A DNA stretch of 64,000 nt, taken from Prorocentrum cordatum. Its lineage: Eukaryota. The position numbers and the translations under genes were made by a program. The notes beneath the pieces are model-generated. The model saw only the letters and a list, made by a program, of their open reading frames with translations. It made no database searches and was not told the DNA's origin. The stretch is taken from contig CAUYUJ010000015.1 of the NCBI GenBank assembly GCA_963575745.1, positions 186,001 through 250,000 on the forward strand, in the 5' to 3' direction. Below, in pieces: positions 1,091-64,000 of this stretch; positions within the stretch are counted from its first letter, which is position 1, and every line of letters starts with the position of its first letter.

Positions 1091-4000
1091 CTTGGACCCC
1101 CTCTTCCACGCTCTCGAGCGAGGGCTGCCTTGTGAGTGACCCTTTGTCCCTTTTGAAGGTGGAGGGTCTTCGTTTCTCGGAGCTCTGGGGCTCTGGCAGC
1201 GGCGCTGCCCCCGACGGCGTCTTCGCGGACCATCTCCCCCGTCTGTCTGCCGGGACATCTCTAAATCGTATAAGGAATCCTCGGCTGTCTCCCTTGACGG
1301 CTTTCATTGTAGGCATTTTTCTTTGCTCTCGGACGCCGCTCTCAATTGCCTGAGTGCCAGTTTCTCCGTCATGGAGGCGGTGGGCTGCCTTCCCCCTCAG
1401 ATTTCGGTTGTTCTTCTGGCACTTTTGCCTAAACCGACTGGAGGTTACAGGCCGATTGGGGTGTTCTGTTCCTGGTTTAGAGTCTGGGGCCGCTGTCGGC
1501 GCCCCCTGGCCCTGGACTGGGAACAACAATACCCCAGAAGGTACTGGGCTGCCGGTCAGTTTCGGGGCGCGGCCGATGTGGTTTGGAGGCAGGCCGTCAC
1601 GGCGGAAGGATGCATTGCGAAGGGCAAAGCTTCTCTTAGTGTGTTGTTCGACCTTCGCAAGTTTTATGAGAACATCTCGTTGCAGGAGTTGGAGGTGCGA
1701 TGCAAGAAACACGATTTTCCTTTTGCTGTGGCCCGTCTTTGTATTTATGCCTATCGATGTGGTAGATTTCTCTGTCTTGGGGGGTGGCTCGAGGGGCCCT
1801 ATTTCTGTCTCAACGGCGTCAACGCAGGGTGCTCGATGGCGACCTCCTTCATCAGAGTGTTTTGCCAGGACGGGTGCGATTCCTTATCCCCCCTTGAAAA
1901 CTTCGATTTGGATGTGTATATTGACGACCAGGGCCTCTCCGTTACCGACACCCCTTCCAAGGTCGTGAAAACTGTCGTCCGCGGGGCCATGGAGCTCCAT
2001 GATGTGGTTTCCAAGGCTTTCGGGTGCAGCCTCGCCCTCGACAAGACGGCCGTGGTGGCCTCTAGCAAGGCGATTGGCGAAGAAGTGGCCTCCCGGCTCA
2101 GCTGTTTAGGAGGGCGGTTCACCAGCAGTGCCGTCAACTTAGGTGTGGACTACACCGCAGGCCGAGCTGTTCGAGTCGGCGGGCGCTGCGCCCAGCTTAA
2201 GCGCAGACTGGCCAAAGCCTCCAGGGCCTCCAGGAGGCTCAAGCGTCAGAACAAGGTCTTGTCCCGTTCTCAGGCGCTCAAAGTTTTCTCGGCTGGGCCT
2301 CTTACTGGGGCCTCATACGGTTCAGAGGTCACCAGCATTAGTGATTGGGACTTGTTGTTGTTGCGCAGGCGAGTGTTTTCTGTCGTGAGGCCGACCTCGC
2401 AACTTCGTTCGCTGACGACTGCGGCGTTGCTCGATTTCGATCCGTGCTGGCGCACGGCCACTGCTCCCATTGTCCGTTGGTCTAAGGAAATCTGGTTATG
2501 CCAGACTGGTGCGTTCCAGTGGGCCCTTCCGCTCACTACCCTCCGCCAGGCTTGGCAATCGGTGTTCGCCGATCAGACCTGCTCCTGGAGGAGAGTTGCT
2601 GGGCCAGTGTCCGCGCGTCGCATGAGCTTGGTGCGGCTTGGGTGGCAGATGGATGATTTTATGACCATGCGAGATGACCGTGGATTCCTTATCCCTCTTG
2701 GGACTGTTTCCCCGGCGCTGGTGAAACTCTTGGTTCGGGACGGGTATTTCAGAATGCTCGAGCGCGATTCTGGCGAAAAGCGCGGCATCCTCCCCCGCAT
2801 TTGCTATGACATTGTTCGTGAAGCGTTGAATAGTAAGAACTACTCGGCCTTACAGAAGGCTCGCATCAGGGCTTTCGCCACGGAGGCTTTCTTCACGGGA
2901 TCTGGAGCGCGATGTAAAGGATATTTGGTCGACGGGCTTTGTCCGTTTTGCGGAGCTCTCGATACCATCTTCCACCGGCTTTGGGAATGCACCCACGAGC
3001 CAAACGTGGCGCTTCGATCGGAGCTCGTTGATGATAGCACGGTGGCTGCTGCTTTGACAGCTAAGGACTCCGATGACAGCAACGATGTGTTCCTTTTTAC
3101 TTCTGGGGCTTTTCGCCATCCCGCCGACTCCTACCCTCGGCCCCTTACCGAGTCGGATGATGGCCCGCACCTTGTGTGGCACCGACAGGATAGTTTGCAC
3201 CCTCGGGGACATGTTCCTGGGACTGAGATGTGGGGTTCTCTTTTTGTGGATGGCAGTTGCACGAAACATCCTGTCCGGGAGCTCTCCCGAGCCGCCAGCA
3301 GCGTTGTGATGGTTGACGATGCTGGAGATGCCGTCGCCGAGTTTCGTGCTCCCGTCTGGGCTCCCTATCCTCAGACTCCCCAGTCGGCCGAATTCAGCTG
3401 CCTGACGTGGGCCACGGTGCTCAGCTCGGCCGCTTTCTCTGTTTTCTCCGATTGCAGTAACGTTGTCAAACAAGCTTGTCGCCCAAAGGTTGAACAGTTT
3501 TCGGGCAAACGACTGTATTCAGCGGCGTTCTTGCAGATATACGCTCAGGGAAGTGCTCCACCGACCGATTGCGTCAAGGTCGCCGCTCACCGTGACATCG
3601 ATGAGGCCGGAATCGACGGCACGGAGCGTTGGCGGAGACTTGGCAATCACCATGCGGATTTGGCGGCGAAGCACGCCACATGTATACACCCGCGAGACGA
3701 GTCTCGCCTGGAGGTCATCGACAAGCAGGTGAAGTATGCTCGCGAGACGATTCGTCTTGCCGCGAATGTGCTCCATCTATGGCCCGACGTGGACCTATCG
3801 ACGGCGGAGAGGATGAAGTGCACTCCTGCCGCGACAGCTGTTTCGGGCCACCGTTGGGAACGATGGGGGAGTATCTGGAGGTGCGCCGTGTGTTTACGCG
3901 GGAGCCGTGCCGAGCAGCCACCTCGAGGTACTTGCCCCCAAGACTCCCCGCTGCACGCTTCGAGACAACATGCTTTAGAGCATCGCACAATTGCGTTTGA

Positions 4001-4474
4001 TTGCAGCGACGGTTCGGTTTTATTCATCTGCGCGCGTTGCAAATGTCACAGCAGCGGCGGACAGATCCGAGGCCCGGCCCAAAAGTGCCAGCCTCCGCCG
4101 TTTCGTGCTGCCAAGTACGGGTGGAATGCTCTCTCCAAGGGACAGCATCCGCATTTCAGGCAGCAGCAAGCAGGGGTGAGGGTCTATACGGACAACCTCA
4201 TGCCATGTTTCTGTCTTTCCTCCTCCCCTTCCTCCGTCCCCCTCCTTCCACCAGTCGGTCGCTCTGAAGCTCAGCAGTTTTCGAGTGTTGTGTCCAGCCT
4301 CCGCATGGAGGAAGACTCGCAGCCTTTGATTCCGGCTGTTGGTCAGAAATGTCTTGCTGACGTCTCGGCCTGACCCATTTCTTGTTAAGGCACTGGCACC
4401 TCCCTCCGTTGCTAGTGTGGCCGCCTGTTAGTCAGGCTCTGGAGGCGCTGAGCGTGGAGCCCAACAACAAAAAT
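1091..4474 (+). mobile_element. 5'-truncated non-LTR retrotransposon (RT + RNase H) between (CCT)n tracts
   Basis: Contains the 1016-aa RT ORF. Ends in a short A-rich tail CAACAACAAAAAT (~4462-4474). (CCT)n at 1049-1090 and 4475-4537. Confidence 0.85.
1323..4373 (+). CDS. Non-LTR retrotransposon polyprotein: reverse transcriptase, Zn finger, RNase H, C-terminal Cys/His motifs
   Basis: RT motifs LPKPTGGYRPIG, FDLRKFYE, GVNAGCS, YIDD, NLGVD; CPFCGALDTIFHRLWEC; RNase H motifs FVDGS, QSAE, FSDC, KVAAH, GNHHADLAAK. The frame continues upstream (SKSYKESSAVSLDGFHCRHF from ~1260) with a probable frameshift near 1250, so the listed TTG start is probably not real. Confidence 0.9.
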   Translation: MLSDAALNCLSASFSVMEAVGCLPPQISVVLLALLPKPTGGYRPIGVFCSWFRVWGRCRRPLALDWEQQYPRRYWAAGQFRGAADVVWRQAVTAEGCIAKGKASLSVLFDLRKFYENISLQELEVRCKKHDFPFAVARLCIYAYRCGRFLCLGGWLEGPYFCLNGVNAGCSMATSFIRVFCQDGCDSLSPLENFDLDVYIDDQGLSVTDTPSKVVKTVVRGAMELHDVVSKAFGCSLALDKTAVVASSKAIGEEVASRLSCLGGRFTSSAVNLGVDYTAGRAVRVGGRCAQLKRRLAKASRASRRLKRQNKVLSRSQALKVFSAGPLTGASYGSEVTSISDWDLLLLRRRVFSVVRPTSQLRSLTTAALLDFDPCWRTATAPIVRWSKEIWLCQTGAFQWALPLTTLRQAWQSVFADQTCSWRRVAGPVSARRMSLVRLGWQMDDFMTMRDDRGFLIPLGTVSPALVKLLVRDGYFRMLERDSGEKRGILPRICYDIVREALNSKNYSALQKARIRAFATEAFFTGSGARCKGYLVDGLCPFCGALDTIFHRLWECTHEPNVALRSELVDDSTVAAALTAKDSDDSNDVFLFTSGAFRHPADSYPRPLTESDDGPHLVWHRQDSLHPRGHVPGTEMWGSLFVDGSCTKHPVRELSRAASSVVMVDDAGDAVAEFRAPVWAPYPQTPQSAEFSCLTWATVLSSAAFSVFSDCSNVVKQACRPKVEQFSGKRLYSAAFLQIYAQGSAPPTDCVKVAAHRDIDEAGIDGTERWRRLGNHHADLAAKHATCIHPRDESRLEVIDKQVKYARETIRLAANVLHLWPDVDLSTAERMKCTPAATAVSGHRWERWGSIWRCAVCLRGSRAEQPPRGTCPQDSPLHASRQHALEHRTIAFDCSDGSVLFICARCKCHSSGGQIRGPAQKCQPPPFRAAKYGWNALSKGQHPHFRQQQAGVRVYTDNLMPCFCLSSSPSSVPLLPPVGRSEAQQFSSVVSSLRMEEDSQPLIPAVGQKCLADVSA

Positions 4475-10899: not shown

Positions 10900-12560
10900 A
10901 TGCACCAAGCGCGAGCACAAGTGCAAAGTGTGCGGGTCGTGTCGAGCACGTGGGCCCGCGATTCGCATGATCTCTTCGATTTCGAGGCCACAGATTTGCA
11001 CAGGAAGATTTTCACCGCCCTGAAGCCGGCGGTCTGCGTGCGCACTGGCACCGACGTCCAGATGGTGATCAGGGGCAACGATAGGGGGGATAGGCATAGG
11101 GGGGAGGATGCATCGACCCCCAATCGCCCATTGATCGCGGTTGGGCCCCGATAGCCCCAACCTGCCCAGGAAGGTGCGGATTCACTATTCGGAGGCCTAT
11201 CGCCGATCTATCGACGACGTATCGCCGATTCCAGGTCGATGCATCCCCCCCTGTGCCCATCCCCCCCTATCGTTGCCCCTCAGGTGAGTGAGCACGTGCC
11301 AGTAAACAACATGTACGACCCCCTTTTGCGGCTGGCCCAGAAGGACGGAGCCTTCTGGGTGGACCGGGCCCCCCCGTCGAGCGGCTCCAAGAAGCTCTGG
11401 CTGGTGGTCCGTGACATGCCCTCCGGGGCCCACCACCTCCAGGAGGGCGACGTCATCAAGCTCGGCCGCTTCAAGTTCCGCGTGCGGCAGCTCGTCGGCT
11501 CCGGCGAAGCGCAGCCAGAGTTGAAGCTTGACGATTCTAGCTCGGTGTGCCGCGTAAACCCAGGGGGCGAGACGGAGCTGGCGCAGACACTCTGTCGCAT
11601 CTGCTTGCTTGAAGGACCAGGTGAGGGCGATCCCCTCATCTCGCCGTGCCTTTGCAAGGGCTCCATCGAATACGTCCACCTCGGCTGCTTGCGGCACTGG
11701 ATCCGAGGGCGTTTGAACCTCTCAGACTCCACTGGCGGCTCCTACTTCTTCCGGCCTCTGCCGTGCGAGCTCTGCAAGGCTGTCTATCCGACCTACGTGC
11801 AGAACGATGCTGAGCCGCAGCCGATGCCGTTGGTGGAGGTGCCATGGACGAAGCCGCCCTTCATCGTTCTAGAGAACATGGTCCGCGACTCTCAGCAGCA
11901 CGCCTGCCGCGGTCTGCATGTTATCTCGCTGGCGGAGAAGGTGCTGAAGCTGGGCCGAGGCCACGAGAGCGACGTGCGCATCGCGGACGTGTCGATCTCC
12001 CGGTGCCACGCCATGATCCGATTCCAGCACGGCCATTTCCAGCTGGAGGACAACAACTCGAAGTTCGGCACCCTGGTCGCCATGAAGAAGCCCCGCCTCC
12101 TGGAGCCGGGCCAAGGCTCGGCGGCGCGCACAAGGAGGGAGCGCGGGCAGGGGGCGGCCTTGAAGAAGGTGGGGGGGGGGCCTTTCTCAGATGCCCCCCC
12201 GGCTTCTAGGAGGCCTTCTCTGAAGCTCTCGGGCCCGTTAAGAGAGGGCCACCGGTTTCGAAGAAGCCCCCCCTCCGCCGTCTTGGAGGGCCACCTTTCT
12301 CGCGCCGCCCCCCTTCCAGCGCGCCGCGAGAAGGCGTGTCCATCCAGATGGGCCGGACGGTGCTCTCCCTGTCGGCCCAGACCGACGTCGAGTCCCTCGA
12401 GGCGCCCACGCCGATTCGCCACGGCCCTTCCGGCGGGGCCGCGGACGAGCGCCAGCTCCGCCTGGCGCTCCTCAATCGTTTCAGTGGCGCGCGCCCCGAC
12501 GGCTGGACCACGGAGCACCCTGGCGATGCGGCCCAGCTGCCCGGCGAGGCCGACGAGTGA
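10900..12560 (+). CDS. FHA / RINGv (C4HC3) / FHA domain protein, putative E3 ligase; exons 10900-11064, 11284-12115, 12334-12560; 407 aa spliced
   Basis: Exons sum to 1224 nt with an open frame from ATG to TGA. RINGv CRICLLE..LISPCLCKGSIEYVHLGCLRHW..CELCK; FHA LKLGRGHESDVRIADVSISRCHA..DNNSKFGT; LQEGDVIKLGR. Splicing restores the FHA end (GQGVSIQMGRTVL). The N-terminal TWARDSHDLFDFE resembles alveolate FHA-RING proteins (from recall). Confidence 0.88.
11065..11283 (+). mobile_element. Introner-like intron 1 (GT-AG, 219 nt): ~50-bp TIRs, 5-bp TSD GGTGA
   Basis: Left end AGGGGCAACGATAGGGGGGAT..GGATGCATCGACC is the reverse complement of right end GGTCGATGCATCC..CCCCTATCGTTGCCCCT; GGTGA at 11064-11068 and 11283-11287. 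Confidence 0.88.
12116..12333 (+). mobile_element. Introner-like intron 2 (GC-AG, 218 nt): degenerate TIRs, TSD AAGG(C)
   Basis: AAGGC at 12113-12117 and 12331-12335; ends CTCGGCGGCGCGC / GCGCGCCGCGAG, with weaker inverted similarity extending ~70 bp inward. Confidence 0.78.
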
Positions 12561-15500
12561 GCTGGCTTTTGGCACCCGATCTCGAGCGCAGAATGCTGTG
12601 GCAGCATTCCCTGGAGCAGCTCGACTCGGGGCAGGCATCGCTCGCTTGCCGCTTTGGGAGGCAGCGTGTCCCAACGTGCCCTCCCCCTTCATGCACCACT
12701 TTGGTGGACTATTCATGTCGCTCTTCGGCCTCATGTTCTGATTCCGCCCTCTTGACTCCCTATATTTCGTTATCATCCGTATCATCCTCTTCACCCGCAT
12801 CTTTACTTCTCCGCCAGATCTGAGACCGACCATCTCACCACGCACAATCGTGCGCTGTATTGAGCGCCAGCTCGCATGTCTGGCATCAGATTGCTGGCAG
12901 GCATATTTGCCATGGTCTCTTAATGTAGGTTTCTAGCTAGACTCTCTCTGTTCCTGCTTCTCTTGCCCAGGGTTCGATTCAACATCGCTGAGAGGGCGCA
13001 CAACATCCTGGCGCATTTTGTTGCCATCCCTTCGCTGGAATAGAATCAGCAGTGGGCCACCCCAGGTCCCGCTGCCGCAGAACTCCCCGCGAGCTTGAAA
13101 GAGCCAGATCCTTGCATGTGCTTGCTCTTGTGGGCGCCGCGCAATGGGGGGGGGGACGATAAATGGGGGGCAGCGAGGGCTGCAGAAAAGGGGCCCCTCA
13201 GGGCACCTAAAGAAGCCCTCCAGGGCCCCCCAGAAAGGGCCTCTAGGTCCCGAGGAGTGCACCTTTCCTTCCCCCCCAGAGCGCCACGCAGCTCTTGCTC
13301 TGAAGGCTTCCCTGACGGGAATGCAGACTCGGGTTTCGTGGCCGCGCCCCGCTCTCTGCTCGCCTTCGGGCCCCTGGAGCGGAGGCGCGCGCCACGCCAT
13401 CCGACCGCCCCGGAGAAGGCAGCAGAGCCCGTCGCGCTGCCAGCAGCGTCTGTGCACGGCCAGCCTTGGGGGGCTCGCTGCGCCGACGTGCGCCAGCAGC
13501 TCATAGCTGCCCCGTTGCGCCCGTGCTGAAACGCAGCACGTGCCGTGCTCGAAATGTACGTGCTGACACGCTGCGTATCGGCTCCGCATGTCTTGGCATC
13601 GCTCGGACATGTGGATTTTTCCTTCGACCAGGACCGTCGAGGAGCATCCTTTATCATTTGGCGAAAAAACCACGCACGAAACCGAAAAAAACACGGGGAA
13701 TGGACGTCCGAGCGATGGCGAGATGTGTTGGTTCACACTTTGGCGAGCGCGTCGCGCCAAGCGTGCCTTTGCAGTCTGCGCCCCGTGTCGACACGCCACG
13801 TGCCGCGTGCTGCGCGTCGGGGCAGCTGCGGCCAGCGGTGGCAAGCAAAGCAGGGACGCGCAGTGTGCGCACCAGCTGGCTAAAGAGAAGCGCCAGCGGC
13901 GAGGGGCATGATGAATGTTTGACTCTCAGCCTCACTGGCCCATACGGAAGCGATGCCCGGGCGAGCTGTCGAAAGAGCAAAGTAGAGAAGCAGGATCGCC
14001 GTGGAACAGCAAGGGGTTGGCCATGAAACCGACGTTGGAACCAACTCGAGCACCTCTAACCATGTCTTAGGAGGAGGAGGAGGAGGAGGAGGCTTGGGAA
14101 CCTGTTGGAGACCTCTTGGAGCCAGCGTGGGGCTGCCGGCCCTTTTGGATGCATGCCAGTCCCTCTCTCGGGGCTCTCTTTGGGGCCCCGTTTGGGAAGC
14201 GTCGGGCCGGGAGAATCGGCCCGCGGCCCGGGCCCACATGGACGTCGCCGCCTTGATTCTGACGGCTTCTCTGACGCACTTTCTTTCTCCAGCAGCCTTG
14301 ACACTTGTGTCATGCTGCTGTGCATACAGTGTGTTTGTGGGGGGGAACCATCGGGCCTTCTTGGAGCCATTCTGGAGGCAATCGACCCAAGAAGGATAGT
14401 CCCTCATCAATTTGCGCTGCCCCTCTGGAGTCAGGCATTCGTGGGGTGCTCTTCTGGGCCCATCTTTTAGCTATCTTAGGCCTCGGATGTCCACTGGAAG
14501 CGAAAAGGCGAGAAGGCAAACATCACGAATCGTTGACAAACCCACGTTGTTCGACGATCGTGTCCTATCGAGGACATCGTTGAGAGGCTCCGTGGCTACC
14601 TCGGTTTGTCCTGTGGCGATCTTGGGGTCTATTGGAGGCTTGCTGGAGACCATCTTGAAGACCATATTGAATGAAGTGTAACCATGTTGCGCAGTCTTGG
14701 ATAACCATATTGGTGCTGTCTCAGGCCTTCTCGGACGCCCCCTTGCCTTGGGGAGCCACGGTCCAGATCCCGGGGGAGGGGGGCAAAAGGAGGGGTAGAC
14801 CCCTTCCCGAAGAGGAAGAGGGGGGTTGGAAGGCAGAACCCGCTAAGACACCTACGCACAGAGGTGGTATTCCGAGCAAGCATGGACACCCTCCTCTTTC
14901 ATTTTTAAGTTTACCTTCGCACTGATCTTTTTCAGACCTCAGACGCCGTGAATGTTCCATGACGCGGGTCCCCGGAGATCTCTGCCCTTTCTCTGGGGTT
15001 TACCTTTTTCACCTCGAGTTTTTCTTGGTTGCGGGACCCACAGAGGCCGAAATTAGGGACAAATGACCGTCCCGATTGTTTCAAGGCGTCGGAGGTCTGG
15101 GTCTGATCTTGTAGGGTCGACCTTCGGTCGACCACGGCGCCGTGTAGTGCAAATCATATGTTCCGCGTCCTCTGCCTCTGCGCAACTGCCAGCGGTCCCG
15201 CCAGGAACTCAGGGCGGTCACATATTTTGCCTTGTCAGCTCCTGGTAACGCCCAAGACCTCTGGCGATCCGAAGAAGTCGAGCCCGGTTTTTTTTTATAC
15301 TTTTCGGCTTTGTGGGTCTGGGGCCGTCAAAGCAAAAGTCAGGATGGCAAGGTGTTCCCCCAGAAGGGCCGTCGGAGGTCTGGGTCTGACTTCTCTTGCG
15401 CACCCCTCGCCCTCGCAGGGCAAGCCAAGGGACTTGGCTCGACCTGCGATGAGAACGGTGGGCGGATGCGCGCTTAGGCGACACGGAGACCTGAGGCTCG

Positions 15501-25400: not shown

Positions 25401-26720
25401 CCCAGAATGCAAGTGAAACAAATTGTTTTTCTCAACCACTTGTCTGGTGACCCACCCCTCCGTGGGTCACCTGGTGTGCTCGCGCCGTAGCGAAAACGCA
25501 TTGAGTGGCAGTGCGTCGCCTCATGTTGAGGCCCAGAATGCAAGTGAAACAGTTGGTTTTTCTCAACCAATTTTCGAGTGACCCACCCCTCCGTGGGTCA
25601 CCCGGTGGGCTTGCGCCGCATGGCAAACGTATTGAGTGGCAATGCCTCGCCTCATGTTGAGGCCCAGAATGCAAGTGAAACAGCTGGTTGTTCTCAACCA
25701 GCTGTCTTGTGACCCACCCCTTCGTGGGTCACCTGGTGTGCTTGCGCCGTATGGCAAACATACAGAGTGGCAGTGCGTCGCCTCATGACGAGGCCCAGGA
25801 TGCAGGTGAAACAATTTGTTTTTCCCAACAAGTTCTCTGGTGACCCACCCCTTCGTGGGTCCCCTGGTGCGCTTGCGCCGTATGGAAAACGTATTGAGTG
25901 GCAATGCATCGCCTCATGTTGAGGCCCAGAATGCAAGTGAAACAAACTGTTTTTCTCAGCCAGTTGTCTGGTGGCCCACCCCTTGGTGGGTCACCCGGTT
26001 TGCTTGCGCCGTATGGAAAACGTATTGAGTGGCAGTGCATCGCCTCATGTTGAGGCCCAGAATGCAAGTGAAACAATTGGTTTTTCTCAACCAGTTGTCT
26101 GGTGACCCACCCCTTCGTGGGTCATCTGGTGTGCTTGCGCCGTATGGAAAACGCATTCAGTGGCAATGTGGCTCAATGGGTCACCTGCTTGCCGTATTGA
26201 GTGGCAGTGCATCGCCTCATGTTGAGGCCCAGAAAGCAAGTGAAACAAATGGTTTTCTCAATCAGTGTTCTGGTGACCCACCCCTTCGTGGGTCACCTGG
26301 TGTGCTTGCGCCGTATCGAAAACGCATTGAGTGGCAGTGCGTCGCCTCATGTTGAGGCCCAGAATGCAGGTGAAACCATTTGTTTTTCTCAACCAGTTTT
26401 CTGGCGACCCACCCCTTCGTGGGTCACCAGGTGTGCTTGCGCCGTACGGCAAACGTATTGAGTGGCAATGTTTCGCCTCATGTTGAGGCCCAGAATGTAA
26501 GTGAGACCATTGGTTTTTCCCAACCAGTTCTCTGGTGGCCCACCCCTTTCGTGGGTCACCTGGTGTGCTTGCGCCGCATGGCAAACATATTGAGTGGCAG
26601 TGCGTCGCCTCATGACGAGGCCCAGGATGCAGGTGAAGCAATTTGTTTCTCTCAACCAGTGTTCTGGTGACCCACCCCTTCGTGGGTCACCTGGCGTGCA
26701 TGCGCTGCATGGAAAACGTC
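22480..26720. repeat. Tandem satellite, ~131-bp unit, ~32 copies
   Basis: Unit GAGTGGCARTGCATCGCCTCATGTTGAGGCCCAGAATGCAAGTGAAACAATTGGTTTTTCTCAACCAGTTTTCTGGTGACCCACCCCTTCGTGGGTCACCTGGTGTGCTTGCGCCGTATGGAAAACGTATT repeated head to tail; no variable spacers. Confidence 0.97.
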
Positions 26721-58779: not shown

Positions 58780-59090
58780 CTCCCAGAACTCCACTCCCGG
58801 GCCGCATTTTGGATGCCCGGAGCCAGCTGTAGGCCACTTCGTGCTCTTCGACTTCCCAGAACTCCATTCCCGGGCCACATTTTGGATGCCCGGAGCCAAC
58901 TGTAGGCCACTTCGTGCTCTTCGATTTCCCAGAACTCCATTCCCGGGCCACATTCTAGATGCCCGGAGCCAACTGTACAAGTTCCCAGAATTCCATTCTT
59001 GGGCATGATTTTGAATGCCCGGAGCCAACTGTAGGCCACTTCGTATTCTTCTAGCTCCCAGAACTCCATTCCTGGGCCACATTTTGAATG
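58780..59090. repeat. Tandem ~73-bp repeat, ~4.5 copies
   Basis: Unit CCCAGAACTCCATTCCCGGGCCACATTTTGGATGCCCGGAGCCAACTGTAGGCCACTTCGTGCTCTTCGA. Confidence 0.9.
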
Positions 59091-59094
59091 CTAA

Positions 59095-59415
59095 GGCAGG
59101 CTGATGCTGCGGCCGAGGCAGGCTGAGGCTGAGGCAGGCTGAGGCTGAGGCCGAGGCTGAAGGCAGACTGAGGCTGAGGCTGAAGCAGACTGAGGCTGAG
59201 GCTGAGGCAGGCTGAGGCTGAGGCTGAAGCAGGCTGATGCTGAGGCAGGCTGAGGCTGAGGCTGAGGCTGATGCAGGCTGAGGCTGAGGCAGGCTGAGGC
59301 TGAGGCCGAGGCTGAAGGCAGACTGAGGCTGAGGCTGAAGCAGGCTGAGGCTGAGGCTGAGGCAGGCTGAGGCTGAGGCAGGCTGAGGCTGAGGCTGAGG
59401 CAGGCTGAGGCTGTG
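59095..59415. repeat. (GCTGAG)n / GCAGGCTGAG minisatellite
   Basis: Direct reading. Confidence 0.95.
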
Positions 59416-61319
59416 ACTGCGACTGCCGTTACCGCTGCGACTGTCATCGCGAATGCGATTACGACTGCGAGAACAGCAGATTTCGACAACTGGATTTTCA
59501 TCTGAATCTTAAGGGGAATGCTTTCATATATGCTTCTACACATCGCTGTTAGGTTGCTTTGCCGGGATAATTTGTTGGGAACGCTCCGGCGCAGAGCGCG
59601 AGGCTTCGAGCCGGCGCGTCCCCTATTCACATGCAATTCCTGCGGCGTTTCTTCGTCGCTCATGACACGAGGCAACTTCGCGACAATCGTCGCGCGCGGC
59701 GTGGCGTCGCCGCCCACGGACACGTCCAACGGAACACCGCTTGTTTTACACTTAGCGCCACCCGCCCTGTTGTGTTTTTTTTTATTTTTATAAACATGAC
59801 ATTTATATTCAGCTTGATGGATTGCCCAATCCTACCTGGCATGTCTTTTATCTCGTCACACCGCGCGGTGCTCAGCGCGAACCACGCGTCTTCGTTAGAT
59901 TGGGGAGTCATCAATTTCAGCGGCGCTCCAATGCATAACATCGACCCCGCGACAACCCTTGCCCTTCGAGGGGGTCGCGCGGCTGGTCCCATCAGATTAA
60001 GAAGTAATGCTCCATAATTCGGTCATGGGGCATGGGCGCACTTGAAGTTGGCGGCGCATAGACTCCCTGAACGGCTCGGTCGTCTTGCCGCGCGAACAAA
60101 GACACGGCCCAGGCTTGCGCGCCCAATTGCCGAGTGCCATGCCATTGCCCAGCGGCGCGCGCATGCAACTCAGAACGGTGCCATGCACATTCTCTTTGTT
60201 GGCGACATTTGTTTTCGCGCGCCCTGCGCCGCGAACTGCGCGGGATCTCGCTTGGCCAGCCATGGCCCCGCACATATTTTTAGGTAGGCCCACGGCGGCA
60301 AGTCCGCTCGCAGACGCGGACGTTCACCGTTGTGGGCGGGCACAAATCGGCCACGGTTGCGCGTAGGTCGCGCGCGCGGCAGTGCGACGCGACCGCGTTC
60401 GCAGGCGCGGGCCATCGCGCCGTCGCGCGCCAGGGTTGCGCGTCGCGGGGGGGGGGTCGCTGCCCCGCGGCGCGTGCGCTTCGCAGGTGATTTGCTAGCG
60501 CCGGGGTTGCGTCGCCGCGGGGGGGGGTCGCTGCCCCCGCGGCGCGTGCGTTTCGCAGGCGATTTGCATTTGGAGGAGGCGCCGCGCGCGCGCCCCGCGC
60601 GCGCGCGCGCGCGGCGGGTGCCTCCCTGGCGCGCGGCGGGTGCCTCCCTGTCGCCCCGCGCTCGGGTTTTGAGCGTGGGGCGCGCCGCGCGCGCGCGCGC
60701 GCCGCCGCCGTCGTTCGCGGGCTCCTCCTCTCCTCCTCTCCTCGCGGGTCGCCTAGTCTCTCTCTCGCTCTCTCCTGCTTGCCTGCCCTCCGTGCTCGTC
60801 CCTCGTGGCCTGTTCGCTCCCCCGCTGCTCGCTTGTGCTCGTTGCCCGTCGTGCCCTGCTCGTGCGCCGTGGCTGCCCCTGCTCTTCGCTCGCCTGCGCG
60901 CCCTTGTGTTTGCTCGTCGCCGCGTCCTTTTTCGCGTCCGCCTTTGTCGTCGCCTTGTCGCCCTCGCGTTCGGCTGTCGCTGTTGCCTCGCGTGGGGTCG
61001 TCCCGGCTTGTGCTTGTCGGCGTGCTTGCTCGCTCGCTCGGCGTCCCGCTTGCCTCGCTTTTCCCGTCGCCGTCGCCCCTGCGTGCCCCCTTTGCTTTCC
61101 CTTCCGCCGCCTGCCGCTTGGCGCCTGCCTTGCTGCTTCTGCCTTCGTGCCTGGCGGTTGCCTGCTTGCCTGCCTGCTCCCTCGTCGTTTTGCCGGTGGC
61201 TCGTCTCCCTCTTGGGCGCAGGCCCTCGCTGGCGCGGGCCCTGTGGGCACTTCGCTCGCGTCGCCTTGGCCTTTCGGCCAGGCTGCGTGCCAGGCTCGCG
61301 GCAAGGGCGCTCCTGGTCT

Positions 61320-62090
61320 CGGGTAAGGCGCAGGCCCCAGGGCCAAGTTTCGCGTGGGGGAGGGCGCAGGCCTTAGGATCCCTGTGTTTTGGGTCGGGCG
61401 CTGGCCCCAGGACCCTATCGCGCGCAAGGGGGAGGGCGCATCCCGTTGATCCCTGTCTTGGGTAGGGCGCAGGCCCCAGGGCCCGATGGTCCGAAGGGGG
61501 GAGGGCGCATCCCGTAGATCCCTGTCTTGGGTAGGGCGCAGGCCCCAGGACCCAGTGGTGCGAAAGGGGGAGGGCGCATCCCGTTGATCCCTGTGTGTCG
61601 GGTAGGGCGCAGGCCCCAGGACCCAACTGTGCGAAAGGGGGAGGGCGCATCCCGTTGATCCCTGTCTTGGGTAGGGCGCAAGCCCCTGAACCTCGTCTTG
61701 CTGGGCACCGCTCTCCTCGTGGGTCGGCCCGCGGGCCTTGTCTCGGGCAGGGCGCTGGCTTCTGGCTCCTCGTCTTGTGTGGGGGAGGGCGCTGGCCCCT
61801 GGTGCCGTGTCTTGGGTAGGGCGCAGGCCCCAGGAGCCAATCGTGCGAAAGGGGGAGGGCGCATCCCGTAGATCCTTGTCTTGGGTAGGGCGCAGGCCCC
61901 AGGACCCATTTGTGCGAAGGGGGAGGGCGCATCCCGTTGATCCCTGTGTCGGGTTGGGCGCAGGCCCCAAGACCCCGTCTGGCTGGGCTCTGGCTTCTTC
62001 TTGGGAGAGCTCCCGGGCCTTCTCTTGGGTTGGGCGCAGGCCCCTGGTCTTCCCCCTCTCGTGAGGGGCGCAGGCCTGGTCGCCACCTCT
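61320..62090. repeat. Tandem ~69-71-bp repeat array (about 8 copies plus partial copies)
   Basis: Unit GGGTAGGGCGCAGGCCCCAGGACCCA...GTGCGAAAGGGGGAGGGCGCATCCCGTTGATCCCTGTCTT. Confidence 0.9.
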
Positions 62091-62190
62091 TGGGGTCCCG
62101 CGCAGTCTCCGTCCTGTGCGCGCTCGCACCGGCAGCTCGCCGAGTTCGGGCGCCCAAGCTGTCTCGCGCCGCGCGGCACCGCTCTTCGCG

Positions 62191-63745
62191 ATGGGCGACC
62201 TCGGCAGTTTTCTTGGCGCCTTGGACGGCGCGTCGGCGCACGAGGCCGGTTGGCTCGAAGCCACGGTGACCGCGCTCAAGGGCCAAGGTGTGGTGACGAT
62301 CGCCGATTTAGAGGGCGCGGCATTCGAGGGTTTCTCTTTTGCCGACAAGGAGCTCGACGCCGCGCAGAAGCGCCTCGTGCGCGCGGGGATCGCCGCGGCG
62401 AGCACGCCGGCGCCGGTGGCTGGGGGCTCGGCGGCGGCCGCCCCTCCAGCGCCCTCGGCGGCGGAGAACGCGGCCGCCCTCTTGGCCGCGCTCAAGACGG
62501 GCACCAGCGAGGCGCAAGCGATCTCGACGCGATCTCGGGCTCGCGTGGCCCCGCGCGGCGCGTTCGCAGGAAAAGCCGGCCCGCGTACTCTTGGGCCCTC
62601 TCCTCGGCAAGGCGTCGCTGGCCAACCTCCCGCAAGAGTTCTGGCCCAGGCGCGCTCGCGCGCGCGCGCGCTGGTTCTCGCATCTGGTCCCGTGCGCCGG
62701 TAGCTCCGACATGCTTGACGCGTTGAACGCGGAAGTCTTGAAGCGGCAGAAGAAGGAATCCAGCGAGGAAGCGCGCGTCTTCCTGTACTCGGACATCCGC
62801 AAGTGGGTGCCCGAGTGGGCCCGCTCGGGCCCTCGCGATTTCGAAGAGGAGGCTGACGGATCGTCCGGCGCCAGCAAGGACATTCGTGACCTCGCCAAGG
62901 CTCGTGCCGCGCGCGCGTTGCCTGGCCCGCGCGCGGGCGCTCGCCCCGCAGGAAGTGGCGGCGGTGAAGAAAGGGCCCGAGAAGAAGGCCTACTTAACCC
63001 TCTGCCAGTGGCAACTGGCTTGGAACCGGCGCCACCTGCCCGTCGCGCGCCCCCCCCGCGCGCCTGCCTGTTATCGCGCCGCGCGCGGCAGGTACATGGT
63101 CGCGCTGGTCGCCACGGGCCAGCTCACGTGGGCTGAGGTGCAGGCGCATCGCGACAACTGCTTGATGGTGGCGGTTCAGGCTGCGCGCGCGCGATTTCTC
63201 GTCGCTCTCTGTTCGCCGCGCGTTGCCGCGCAGGCGGCGGCCTCGAAGCGCCGCGTGCACCTCGGTATCGTGTACGACGAGGAGGCGCGGAAGGCGCGCC
63301 CCTGCGTTCATGCTTGCGCGGCGCCCTGCTTCTGTGCCGGCGCGCGGCAGCTATGGGCCGAGCAGCTACGCTCGGGGGACCCAGATTTCAAGCTGGGAAA
63401 GACGATCCTGCGGGTCGACCCGCGCGCCCTACAGCTGGCGCGGGATGCTTGCGACAAAGAAGACGGCGCCACCCACGCGACGGCGAGCGTCGCGCCGCGC
63501 GGATTCGCTTCTGCCACCTTTCTCCGCCGTTTCCGCGCGCGCAGGCACCGGCGGCCCGCGCTCCCGAGAAGGCGCGCGGGGCGGGCGGCGCCAGCCAGCC
63601 GTGGCGCGCCGCGCAGAGCTGGAGCAGCGGCTCCTGGGGCAGCGATTGGCCGAAGGGCCAGAAGCGCGAGCGCTCGTGGGGCAGCGATTGGAAGAAAAAG
63701 GACACGAGGAAGGCACGGACGCCGCCGCGCCCGGCGCAGCGCTGA
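62191..63745 (+). CDS. Spliced ~384-aa protein, Gag-like (possibly DIRS/Ngaro ORF1); exons 62191-62511, 62570-62649, 62704-62899, 62952-63028, 63092-63179, 63234-63293, 63351-63482, 63545-63745
   Basis: Seven GC..AG introns of 58, 54, 52, 63, 54, 57 and 62 nt join four ORF frames into one 1155-nt frame from ATG to TGA; motif W..AWNRY..A....W.....H...GIVYDEEARKLWA. Confidence 0.65.
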
Positions 63746-64000
63746 GCGCCGCCCTGGCAGGGCGCGCGCGAGCCCCCGTAGGGGTGGAGCCCCTTCAGCC
63801 GTCAGAACGGCTCGCGCGCAAAAGCCTGCCTCCGCCCGCGCCGGGTCGGGGCCGCGACCCGGGCGCGCCCGATAGTTCTACGCTTTGTCGCTAAAAATGG
63901 CCCCGTGCGCCGTGCGCAGGACCCCCACTCGCGTGCTGGGACATGCCGCGTGCGCTGTTGCCGCGGAGGCCGCTTCGCTTTCCGCGCCGCGCTGCGAGTG

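Follow-up and report, generated by a model that had tools for sequence, protein, structure and literature searches.

How can a retroelement gene be divided by numerous spliceosomal introns, when introns should be lost as the element is copied through RNA, and retroelement genes are normally intron-free? This question is raised by positions 62191 to 63745 of a 64,000-nt stretch of Prorocentrum cordatum DNA (contig CAUYUJ010000015.1; hereafter, the window). Judged by its identity and structure, this part of a P. cordatum-like genome is probably the intron-split first open reading frame (ORF1), with a Gag-like product, of a tyrosine-recombinase retroelement. Such an element would be laid out in the order gag, reverse transcriptase (RT)/RNase H (together, pol) and recombinase, with seven spliceosomal introns in ORF1, each 52-63 nt long and with host-type G/GC..AG/G signals (slashes mark the exon-intron boundaries).

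Seven segments of the form G/GC..AG, measuring 58, 54, 52, 63, 54, 57 and 62 nt, lie between ATG 62191 and the TGA at 63743-63745, and their removal leaves 1155 nt encoding 384 aa (Table 1). Each of the seven follows an exonic G, starts with GC and ends with AG, and five are followed by a further G. The frame changes between the listed ORFs are bridged by the three segments whose lengths are not multiples of three (58, 52 and 62 nt). The original prediction had proposed exactly this, namely seven GC..AG segments of 52-63 nt after an exonic G, three of which join four ORFs into a 384-aa protein; all seven were present and the reconstruction was reproduced. The final TAG of intron 2 is the stop that closes the reading frame of exon 1, and the intron is open in the frame of exon 2. 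Intron 1, for which frame logic in a poorly conserved linker is the sole argument, is the weakest of the seven and has the least certain boundaries; ORF calls P0004-P0008 and P0090 read through it in a shifted frame.

Table 1. Features at the right end of the window (window positions; introns and exons belong to the predicted ORF1)
Feature	Position	Strand	Description
ORF1 (Gag-like) gene	62191..63745	+	8 exons, 7 introns, 384 aa spliced
Exon 1	62191..62511	+	321 nt, 107 aa; 92-96% identity to N-termini of P0001-P0005
Intron 1	62512..62569	+	58 nt, GC-AG, phase 0; required for exon-1 to exon-2 frame switch
Exon 2	62570..62649	+	80 nt; product alignable to intronless gag of L001 and L004
Intron 2	62650..62703	+	54 nt, GC-AG, phase 2; exact by spliced alignment to L004 gag
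Exon 3	62704..62899	+	196 nt
Intron 3	62900..62951	+	52 nt, GC-AG, phase 0; frame bridge; exact with P0018 reference
Exon 4	62952..63028	+	77 nt
Intron 4	63029..63091	+	63 nt, GC-AG, phase 2; exact with three references
Exon 5	63092..63179	+	88 nt
Intron 5	63180..63233	+	54 nt, GC-AG, phase 0; exact with P0018
Exon 6	63234..63293	+	60 nt
Intron 6	63294..63350	+	57 nt, GC-AG, phase 0; exact with L001 gag (one of two alignment rounds), L004 gag and P0018 (both)
Exon 7	63351..63482	+	132 nt
Intron 7	63483..63544	+	62 nt, GC-AG, phase 0; frame bridge
Exon 8	63545..63745	+	201 nt; basic W/G/S-rich tail with RTPPRPAQR at its end, followed by stop
Downstream region continuing into pol and recombinase in P0003	63917..64000	+	27/28 residues match P0003
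Tandem array	61316..61975	.	69-nt unit x 9.4; Tandem Repeats Finder, 74% matches; self-BLAST

The motif alone is a weak argument, because 101 G/GC..AG segments of 48-67 nt fit within the GC-rich ORF1 stretch as a chance background. Comparison with relatives was more informative. A phmmer search with the read-through of 62952-63482 returned 31 proteins, 14 of which were used in an alignment; P0034 (a 1769-aa repeat protein, E 1.3e-4) was discarded as a chance match. P0018 (45% identity) is gapless across junctions 4, 5 and 6, and P0018 and P0023 also span junction 3, close to which a variable stretch has a gap of two residues. Other aligned relatives lack one or two of the segments, and the uninterrupted gag ORFs of two metagenome loci, L001 and L004, cross junctions 2, 4, 5 and 6. 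Specifically, intron 4 is missing from P0018, P0031, P0037, L001 and L004; intron 5 from P0018, P0036, P0026, P0031 and P0025; and intron 6 from P0018, P0023 and P0035, with L001 and L004 also contiguous at junction 6. We then used a protein-to-DNA spliced aligner written for the purpose, with decoy splice dinucleotides as controls. With P0018 as reference, introns 3-6 were recovered exactly together with the acceptor of intron 7 (score 285 vs 227 and 206 for decoys), and a second alignment round again gave introns 4-6 exactly (204 vs 170-181 for decoys). For intron 7, the acceptor at 63544 was recovered, and the donor changed with the reference. Under decoy dinucleotides the aligner removed about the same inserts with shifted boundaries, and scores were nearly equal with distant references, so that the inserts are robust and their exact ends rest on the splice signals.

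The segments also differ from the exons in composition and in rate of change. The GC content at the three codon positions was 0.69/0.43/0.84 in 118 exon codons vs 0.82/0.75/0.77 in 57 in-frame codons of introns 4-6, and A made up 5% of intron bases vs 17.6% of exon bases. Exon 1 shares 94-96% identity with three proteins (P0001-P0003) labelled Prorocentrum cordatum. Between the window and paralog P0009, 90 of 92 exon-coded residues were identical vs 19 of 32 intron-coded ones, the corresponding figures for P0010 being 72 of 74 vs 32 of 49, and gaps relative to both paralogs were confined to intron stretches. The ORF of P0090 misses the frame of exon 4 and follows that of exon 5, P0008 is back in frame after introns 1 and 2, and P0012 reads exon 6 out of frame; because paralog ORF calls slip out of frame and back, intron lengths must vary by numbers that are not multiples of three while exon frames are kept. 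P0009 and P0016 read through intron 7 in frame. P0090 (385 aa) was considered as a possible spliced product and rejected, as it corresponds to an unspliced read-through. A near-identical copy or allele in run X1 has a 2-nt deletion within intron 2 (window position 62657), and three of its 10 substitutions fall inside the 57-nt intron 6 (63310-63345).

The signals themselves are those of the host. According to the genome statistics given in PMC10666404, P. cordatum uses GT, GC and GA donors at 24.7%, 51.4% and 23.8%, respectively (Table 2 therein), 79.7% of its acceptors read AGG, its introns average 4709 bp and its genome has a mean GC content of 59.7%; the window has 60.0%, and 62000-64000 has 72%. 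Since GC is the commonest donor class of the host, GC-AG introns flanked by G are ordinary here, and for independent introns the chance of GC donors in all seven would be about 0.514^7 = 0.009. The original prediction had called a retroelement gene that keeps many spliceosomal introns unexpected; the oddities of the locus are the tiny size of the introns (52-63 nt) and their setting inside a retroelement, and not the GC-AG dinucleotides. Donor and acceptor class, restoration of the frame and gapless sites in intron-free homologs all agree with dinoflagellate spliceosomal introns, and on these sequence grounds we regard the predicted exon-intron structure of ORF1 as demonstrated.

What kind of gene is interrupted in this way is indicated by its neighbours. 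Paralog P0003, a gene model of 1346 aa, begins with a Gag-like part and goes on into a region resembling pol and recombinase. The pol part shares 45% identity with P0040, whose 1258-aa ORF is contiguous, and the recombinase region was recognised by alignment. The last 84 bases of the window encode the start of this P0003 continuation (read by eye; tblastn gave no match). We took the Gag-Pol join of P0003 as a gene-model artefact, given that canonical splice sites on the window sequence cannot reproduce it. A scan of metagenome contigs with a pol alignment identified 37 loci, and tblastn with 17 Gag-family queries matched 12 of these, in every case with gag on the same strand as pol and preceding the RT. 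The gag match lies 5' of pol in L001, L002, L006, L007, L014, L016, L022, L033 and L034, and between the recombinase and the following RT in L004, L015 and L018; most of the other 25 loci have too little upstream sequence for gag. Direct redundancy of contig ends points to tandem or circular units in L004 (1-9326, period 6444), L015 (1-7732, period 7591, its two terminal 141-nt stretches being identical) and L034 (1-9079, period about 9001), and the order is therefore gag, RT/RNase H and recombinase throughout. Intron-bearing elements (L015 and L034) are among these head-to-tail arrays or circles. No inverted repeats of at least 40 nt were found in L004, L015, L016 and L034, where the only repetition of ends was the redundancy of the tandem or circular units. 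Searching with a Gag profile brought in five close relatives of L001 and nothing else, and no further copies of gag or of this pol were found within the 64-kb window.

For the RT, 9 of the 33 locus ORFs matched RVT_1 just below the cut-off and the consensus contains FRYVDDFF, and RT_RNaseH was matched weakly in 2 of 33 locus ORFs (E 0.08-0.09). The pol consensus also has conserved SDNTGAE and DLPSR stretches, which we take to resemble RNase H motifs. For the third ORF, structure gave a clearer result: the predicted model of the L004 recombinase (L004:3055-4431) matched Cre best in Foldseek (E 9.5e-7, prob 1.00) and then XerH, Tn1549 integrase and XerA, among 32 matches at E <= 0.001, and the recombinase profile matched box II of Cre (residues 266-316) with E 0.013. 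Modelling thus confirmed the third ORF of the relatives as a predicted tyrosine recombinase. No match to a protease or DDE integrase was found in these searches. The ORF1 protein accordingly belongs to a family encoded upstream of RT-like and recombinase ORFs, and the gene order in P0003 and in the 12 loci, together with the recombinase fold of the relatives, supports the guess of the original prediction that this is a Gag of DIRS/Ngaro type. In L001, one stop codon separates gag (445-1551) from RT (1555-3915), which share a reading frame, and the RT and recombinase frames of L005 (2-2248) likewise abut in frame across a single stop, which hints at stop-codon read-through.

Two or three CCHC knuckles are present in relatives L004 and L014 where the window protein has its basic tail: zf-CCHC was matched in the L004 gag tail with E 7.8e-4 (19.9 bits vs a cut-off of 20.8), and three C-x2-C-x4-H-x4-C motifs were seen by eye in that of L014. 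The motif of the exon-8 tail (a PRTPPRP-like end after W/G/S-rich repeats, 63545-63742) recurs in P0009, P0016, P0019, P0026 and P0035. With this basic tail, the ORF1 product probably binds nucleic acid and packages it. In the ESM Atlas, the nearest clusters were unnamed proteins, mostly of Basidiomycota, at 0.96, which we treat as a lead only. A shared N-terminal domain of Gag exon 1 and the recombinase ORF seemed possible by eye and was dropped as unsupported (E 0.35-0.43).

We found that short introns are not peculiar to the window. In many loci, the pol and recombinase high-scoring segment pairs are split into pieces of different frame by spacers of 30-100 nt, which end AG/GT..AG/G. Spliced alignment to the intronless proteins of L004 yielded 150 inferred introns at 21 loci, 135 of them between 45 and 80 nt, in the RT and recombinase genes. 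These 135 have a median of 59 nt (interquartile range 55-62.5); their donors are GT in 83, GC in 48 and GA in 4, and a G precedes the donor in 105 and follows the AG in 112, neither of which was imposed by the aligner. The total score was 27226 with real signals vs 26008-26212 with decoys. Some positions are common to several loci, for example aa 630-632 (9 of 21 loci) and aa 601 (6 of 20) of the RT reference, and aa 225 and aa 255 of the recombinase (5 of 15 each). After removal of introns, 11 of 17 reconstructions were stop-free with a length divisible by three, and the others had one stop each (three) or one frameshift (three). For example, an RT ORF of 1923 nt emerged from L015 and one of 1569 nt from L023 after removal of 7 introns each, and L001, L003, L004 and L029 have no introns. 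In gag, intron 4 of the window coincides in position and phase with an intron of L016, an intron common to L015, L016 and L034 sits 4 nt upstream of window intron 6, and another position is common to L007 and L015. With up to about 16 introns in pol and recombinase of relatives, the family ranges from zero to about 20. Among 142 introns compared, likeness was confined to introns that related loci (L007/L010 and L013/L016) have at a common position. Many members of the family, then, have short introns in all three genes, some at common positions, and encode intact proteins once these are removed.

These observations suggest how introns might persist in a retroelement. Gag would be made only from fully spliced mRNA, because three of the introns shift the frame. 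Copies keep their introns, and new copies should therefore derive from a full-length RNA left unspliced, or from DNA that the recombinase has moved. Intron-free relatives would be descendants of reverse-transcribed spliced RNA. We propose only tentatively that an active dinoflagellate lineage of tyrosine-recombinase retroelements spreads through unspliced RNA and passes on dozens of introns of about 59 nt in gag, pol and recombinase. One transcript would then have two fates, with spliced mRNA yielding the proteins and a splicing-immune genomic RNA being copied, and both gain and loss of introns would occur inside the mobile element itself.

Several results weigh against this interpretation of the locus. 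The window ends 255 nt past the stop, and the pol and recombinase of this copy would lie beyond; and P0003 is a gene model and could be fusing neighbouring genes. P. cordatum model P0039 has VGD where P0040 has VDD, and local copies may therefore be decaying. All nine RVT_1 matches in the locus ORFs fell below the Pfam cut-off (best E 1.8e-6, 28.3 bits vs 29.6), the RT profile matched no PDB sequence, and a search of PDB sequences with P0003 and P0040 returned nothing. The window protein has no CCHC motif, and no Pfam family was found in its four exon pieces, nor in P0001, P0003, P0039 or P0040. The gag of L001 has a predicted helical core with a predicted local distance difference test score (pLDDT) > 90, which matched no solved or viral fold in Foldseek PDB, VIA-align wide or BFVD (best, weak scores E 0.16, Z 4.3 and E 0.054, respectively); the label Gag therefore rests on position and on the knuckles of relatives. 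In the family-wide alignment, decoy signals produced about as many 'introns' as real ones (112-121 vs 128), so that the inserts are robust and single boundaries are not. Finally, none of the RNA runs searched contained the stretch, and these runs gave no RNA evidence of splicing; the contigs of run X1 cover the introns evenly and show no joints, as DNA would, and runs X2 and X3 gave no contigs for the stretch.

The introns would survive trivially if such elements multiplied at the DNA level with no RNA step, through excision and reintegration of circles by the recombinase, tandem amplification or segmental duplication. The three tandem or circular contigs (L004, L015 and L034), two of them intron-bearing, agree with this, and an RNA copy could retain about 20 introns per unit only by escaping splicing completely. 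However, the RT and RNase H genes of intron-rich units (L015 and L023) are intact after intron removal, which implies selection on the RT, and the mosaic presence and absence of introns across relatives fits occasional copying from partly spliced RNA; multiplication by DNA alone is, on balance, unlikely. Domestication, in which a Gag-like gene was captured for host use and gained ordinary host introns after mobility was lost, would account for the intact spliced frame, the conservation of exons between paralogs (97-98% vs 59-65% for intron stretches), the annotation of the paralogs as ordinary P. cordatum proteins, the VGD of P0039 at the RT catalytic box and the fact that no terminal repeats were seen in the four relatives examined. 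Nevertheless, we judge it slightly less probable again, as gag is still joined to pol and recombinase in P0003, whose continuation the window matches; complete tandem or circular units (L015 and L034) have introns in their RT and recombinase genes too, which domestication of a single gene does not explain; and the introns measure about 59 nt vs the host mean of 4709 bp (in the statistics of PMC10666404). That the segments are not introns, but short GC-rich insertions with chance GC..AG ends in a decayed pseudogene, is very improbable: the 101 chance candidates, the four segments that stay in the coding frame without a stop, the gene models P0001-P0003 that retain some segments as coding, and segment folds no more stable than shuffled sequence would permit it, but exactly these seven restore one frame and coincide with gapless junctions in intronless relatives, lack codon periodicity, evolve faster and carry indels, and have 135 like segments in relatives, with G/GY..AG/G signals that were not imposed and narrow sizes.

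DIRS1 and Ngaro elements carry gag, RT/RNase H and a tyrosine recombinase; DIRS1 has inverted terminal repeats and an internal complementary region, and Ngaro has split direct repeats. The family of the window resembles both in gene order and in having no protease or DDE integrase match, and resembles Ngaro in being methyltransferase-free, but it differs in its many spliceosomal introns and in that the terminal repeats of these elements were not found in four relatives. The methyltransferase that follows RNase H in DIRS1/PAT has no counterpart in P0039, P0040 and the 33 locus ORFs, whose Pfam matches include no methyltransferase family. A different class, the Penelope-like elements, has a telomerase-like RT and is not known to carry a tyrosine recombinase or Gag. 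These elements, reportedly described by Arkhipova et al. in 2003 as keeping spliceosomal introns, are similar to the present family in keeping introns in genomic copies, which here are many per element and occur in all genes. That genomic copies of Penelope-like elements keep spliceosomal introns is also stated in the portion of PMC4209133 that concerns them, and for DIRS elements a methyltransferase domain is named in the corresponding part of PMC9940879.

The closest comparison by host is SymbioDIRS of Symbiodinium (de Mendoza et al. 2018, PMC5890265). In the sections of that paper dealing with these elements, their gene models are intronless and are called intronless genes, some have a DNMT domain, intronlessness is used to separate transposon copies from host genes, and the DIRS RTs are said to escape Pfam models. 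Compared by description, SymbioDIRS is similar in occurring in a dinoflagellate, in having a Pol ORF with RT and RNase H and a separate tyrosine recombinase ORF, and in an RT too divergent for Pfam; it differs in being intronless and in that the text of the paper does not contain the word 'gag', whereas the present element has a seven-intron ORF1 and no methyltransferase match. Dinoflagellate introners, as presented in parts of PMC10666404 and PMC12130899, are transposons that become introns, whereas here the introns lie inside a transposon; common to both are short introns of dinoflagellate genes, recently gained and lost. An introner origin was considered for the present introns and rejected, as no multi-copy family was present among the 142 introns and fold z-scores (-1.1 to +0.9) were no better than those of shuffles; copies of the seven introns elsewhere in the window were not found either, apart from (GC)n runs. 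In the open full-text literature searched, we found no description of intron-bearing tyrosine-recombinase retroelements.

Upstream of the gene, the 69-nt tandem array ends 216 nt 5' of ATG 62191, and tandem repeats also occur in non-coding spacers of relatives L034 and L004. The array, which the original prediction had likened to an element untranslated region, is real and may represent 5' non-coding sequence of the element. More tandem arrays are present at 58781-60884, including a 73-nt unit x 2.7, AGGCTG x 57 (59098-59413) and a 72-nt unit x 2, among others, and 60001-62000 has a strong bias of T over A (AT skew -0.42). At the other end of the window, a frame of 1077 aa (1140-4373, + strand) matched RVT_1 above the cut-off (E 5.5e-7, 29.9 bits) and, weakly, RNase_H; we rejected it as a member of the family, and it represents a second retroelement unrelated to the recombinase family. 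The frame at 11155-12741 (+ strand), with RINGv (E 4.8e-12) and FHA (E 9.1e-11) domains, is probably an exon of a host gene.

Elements of this kind will escape transposon searches built on intronless models or on Pfam domains, and gene predictors label them as host proteins, as in the case of P0001-P0003. The family, with its range from no introns to about 20, offers a natural series in which escape of genomic RNA from splicing, spread as DNA by a recombinase, and gain and loss of introns can be followed. If the proposed mechanism is true, intron-free sister elements would mark where spliced RNA was copied, and retroelements would be carriers, and possibly a source, of short introns.

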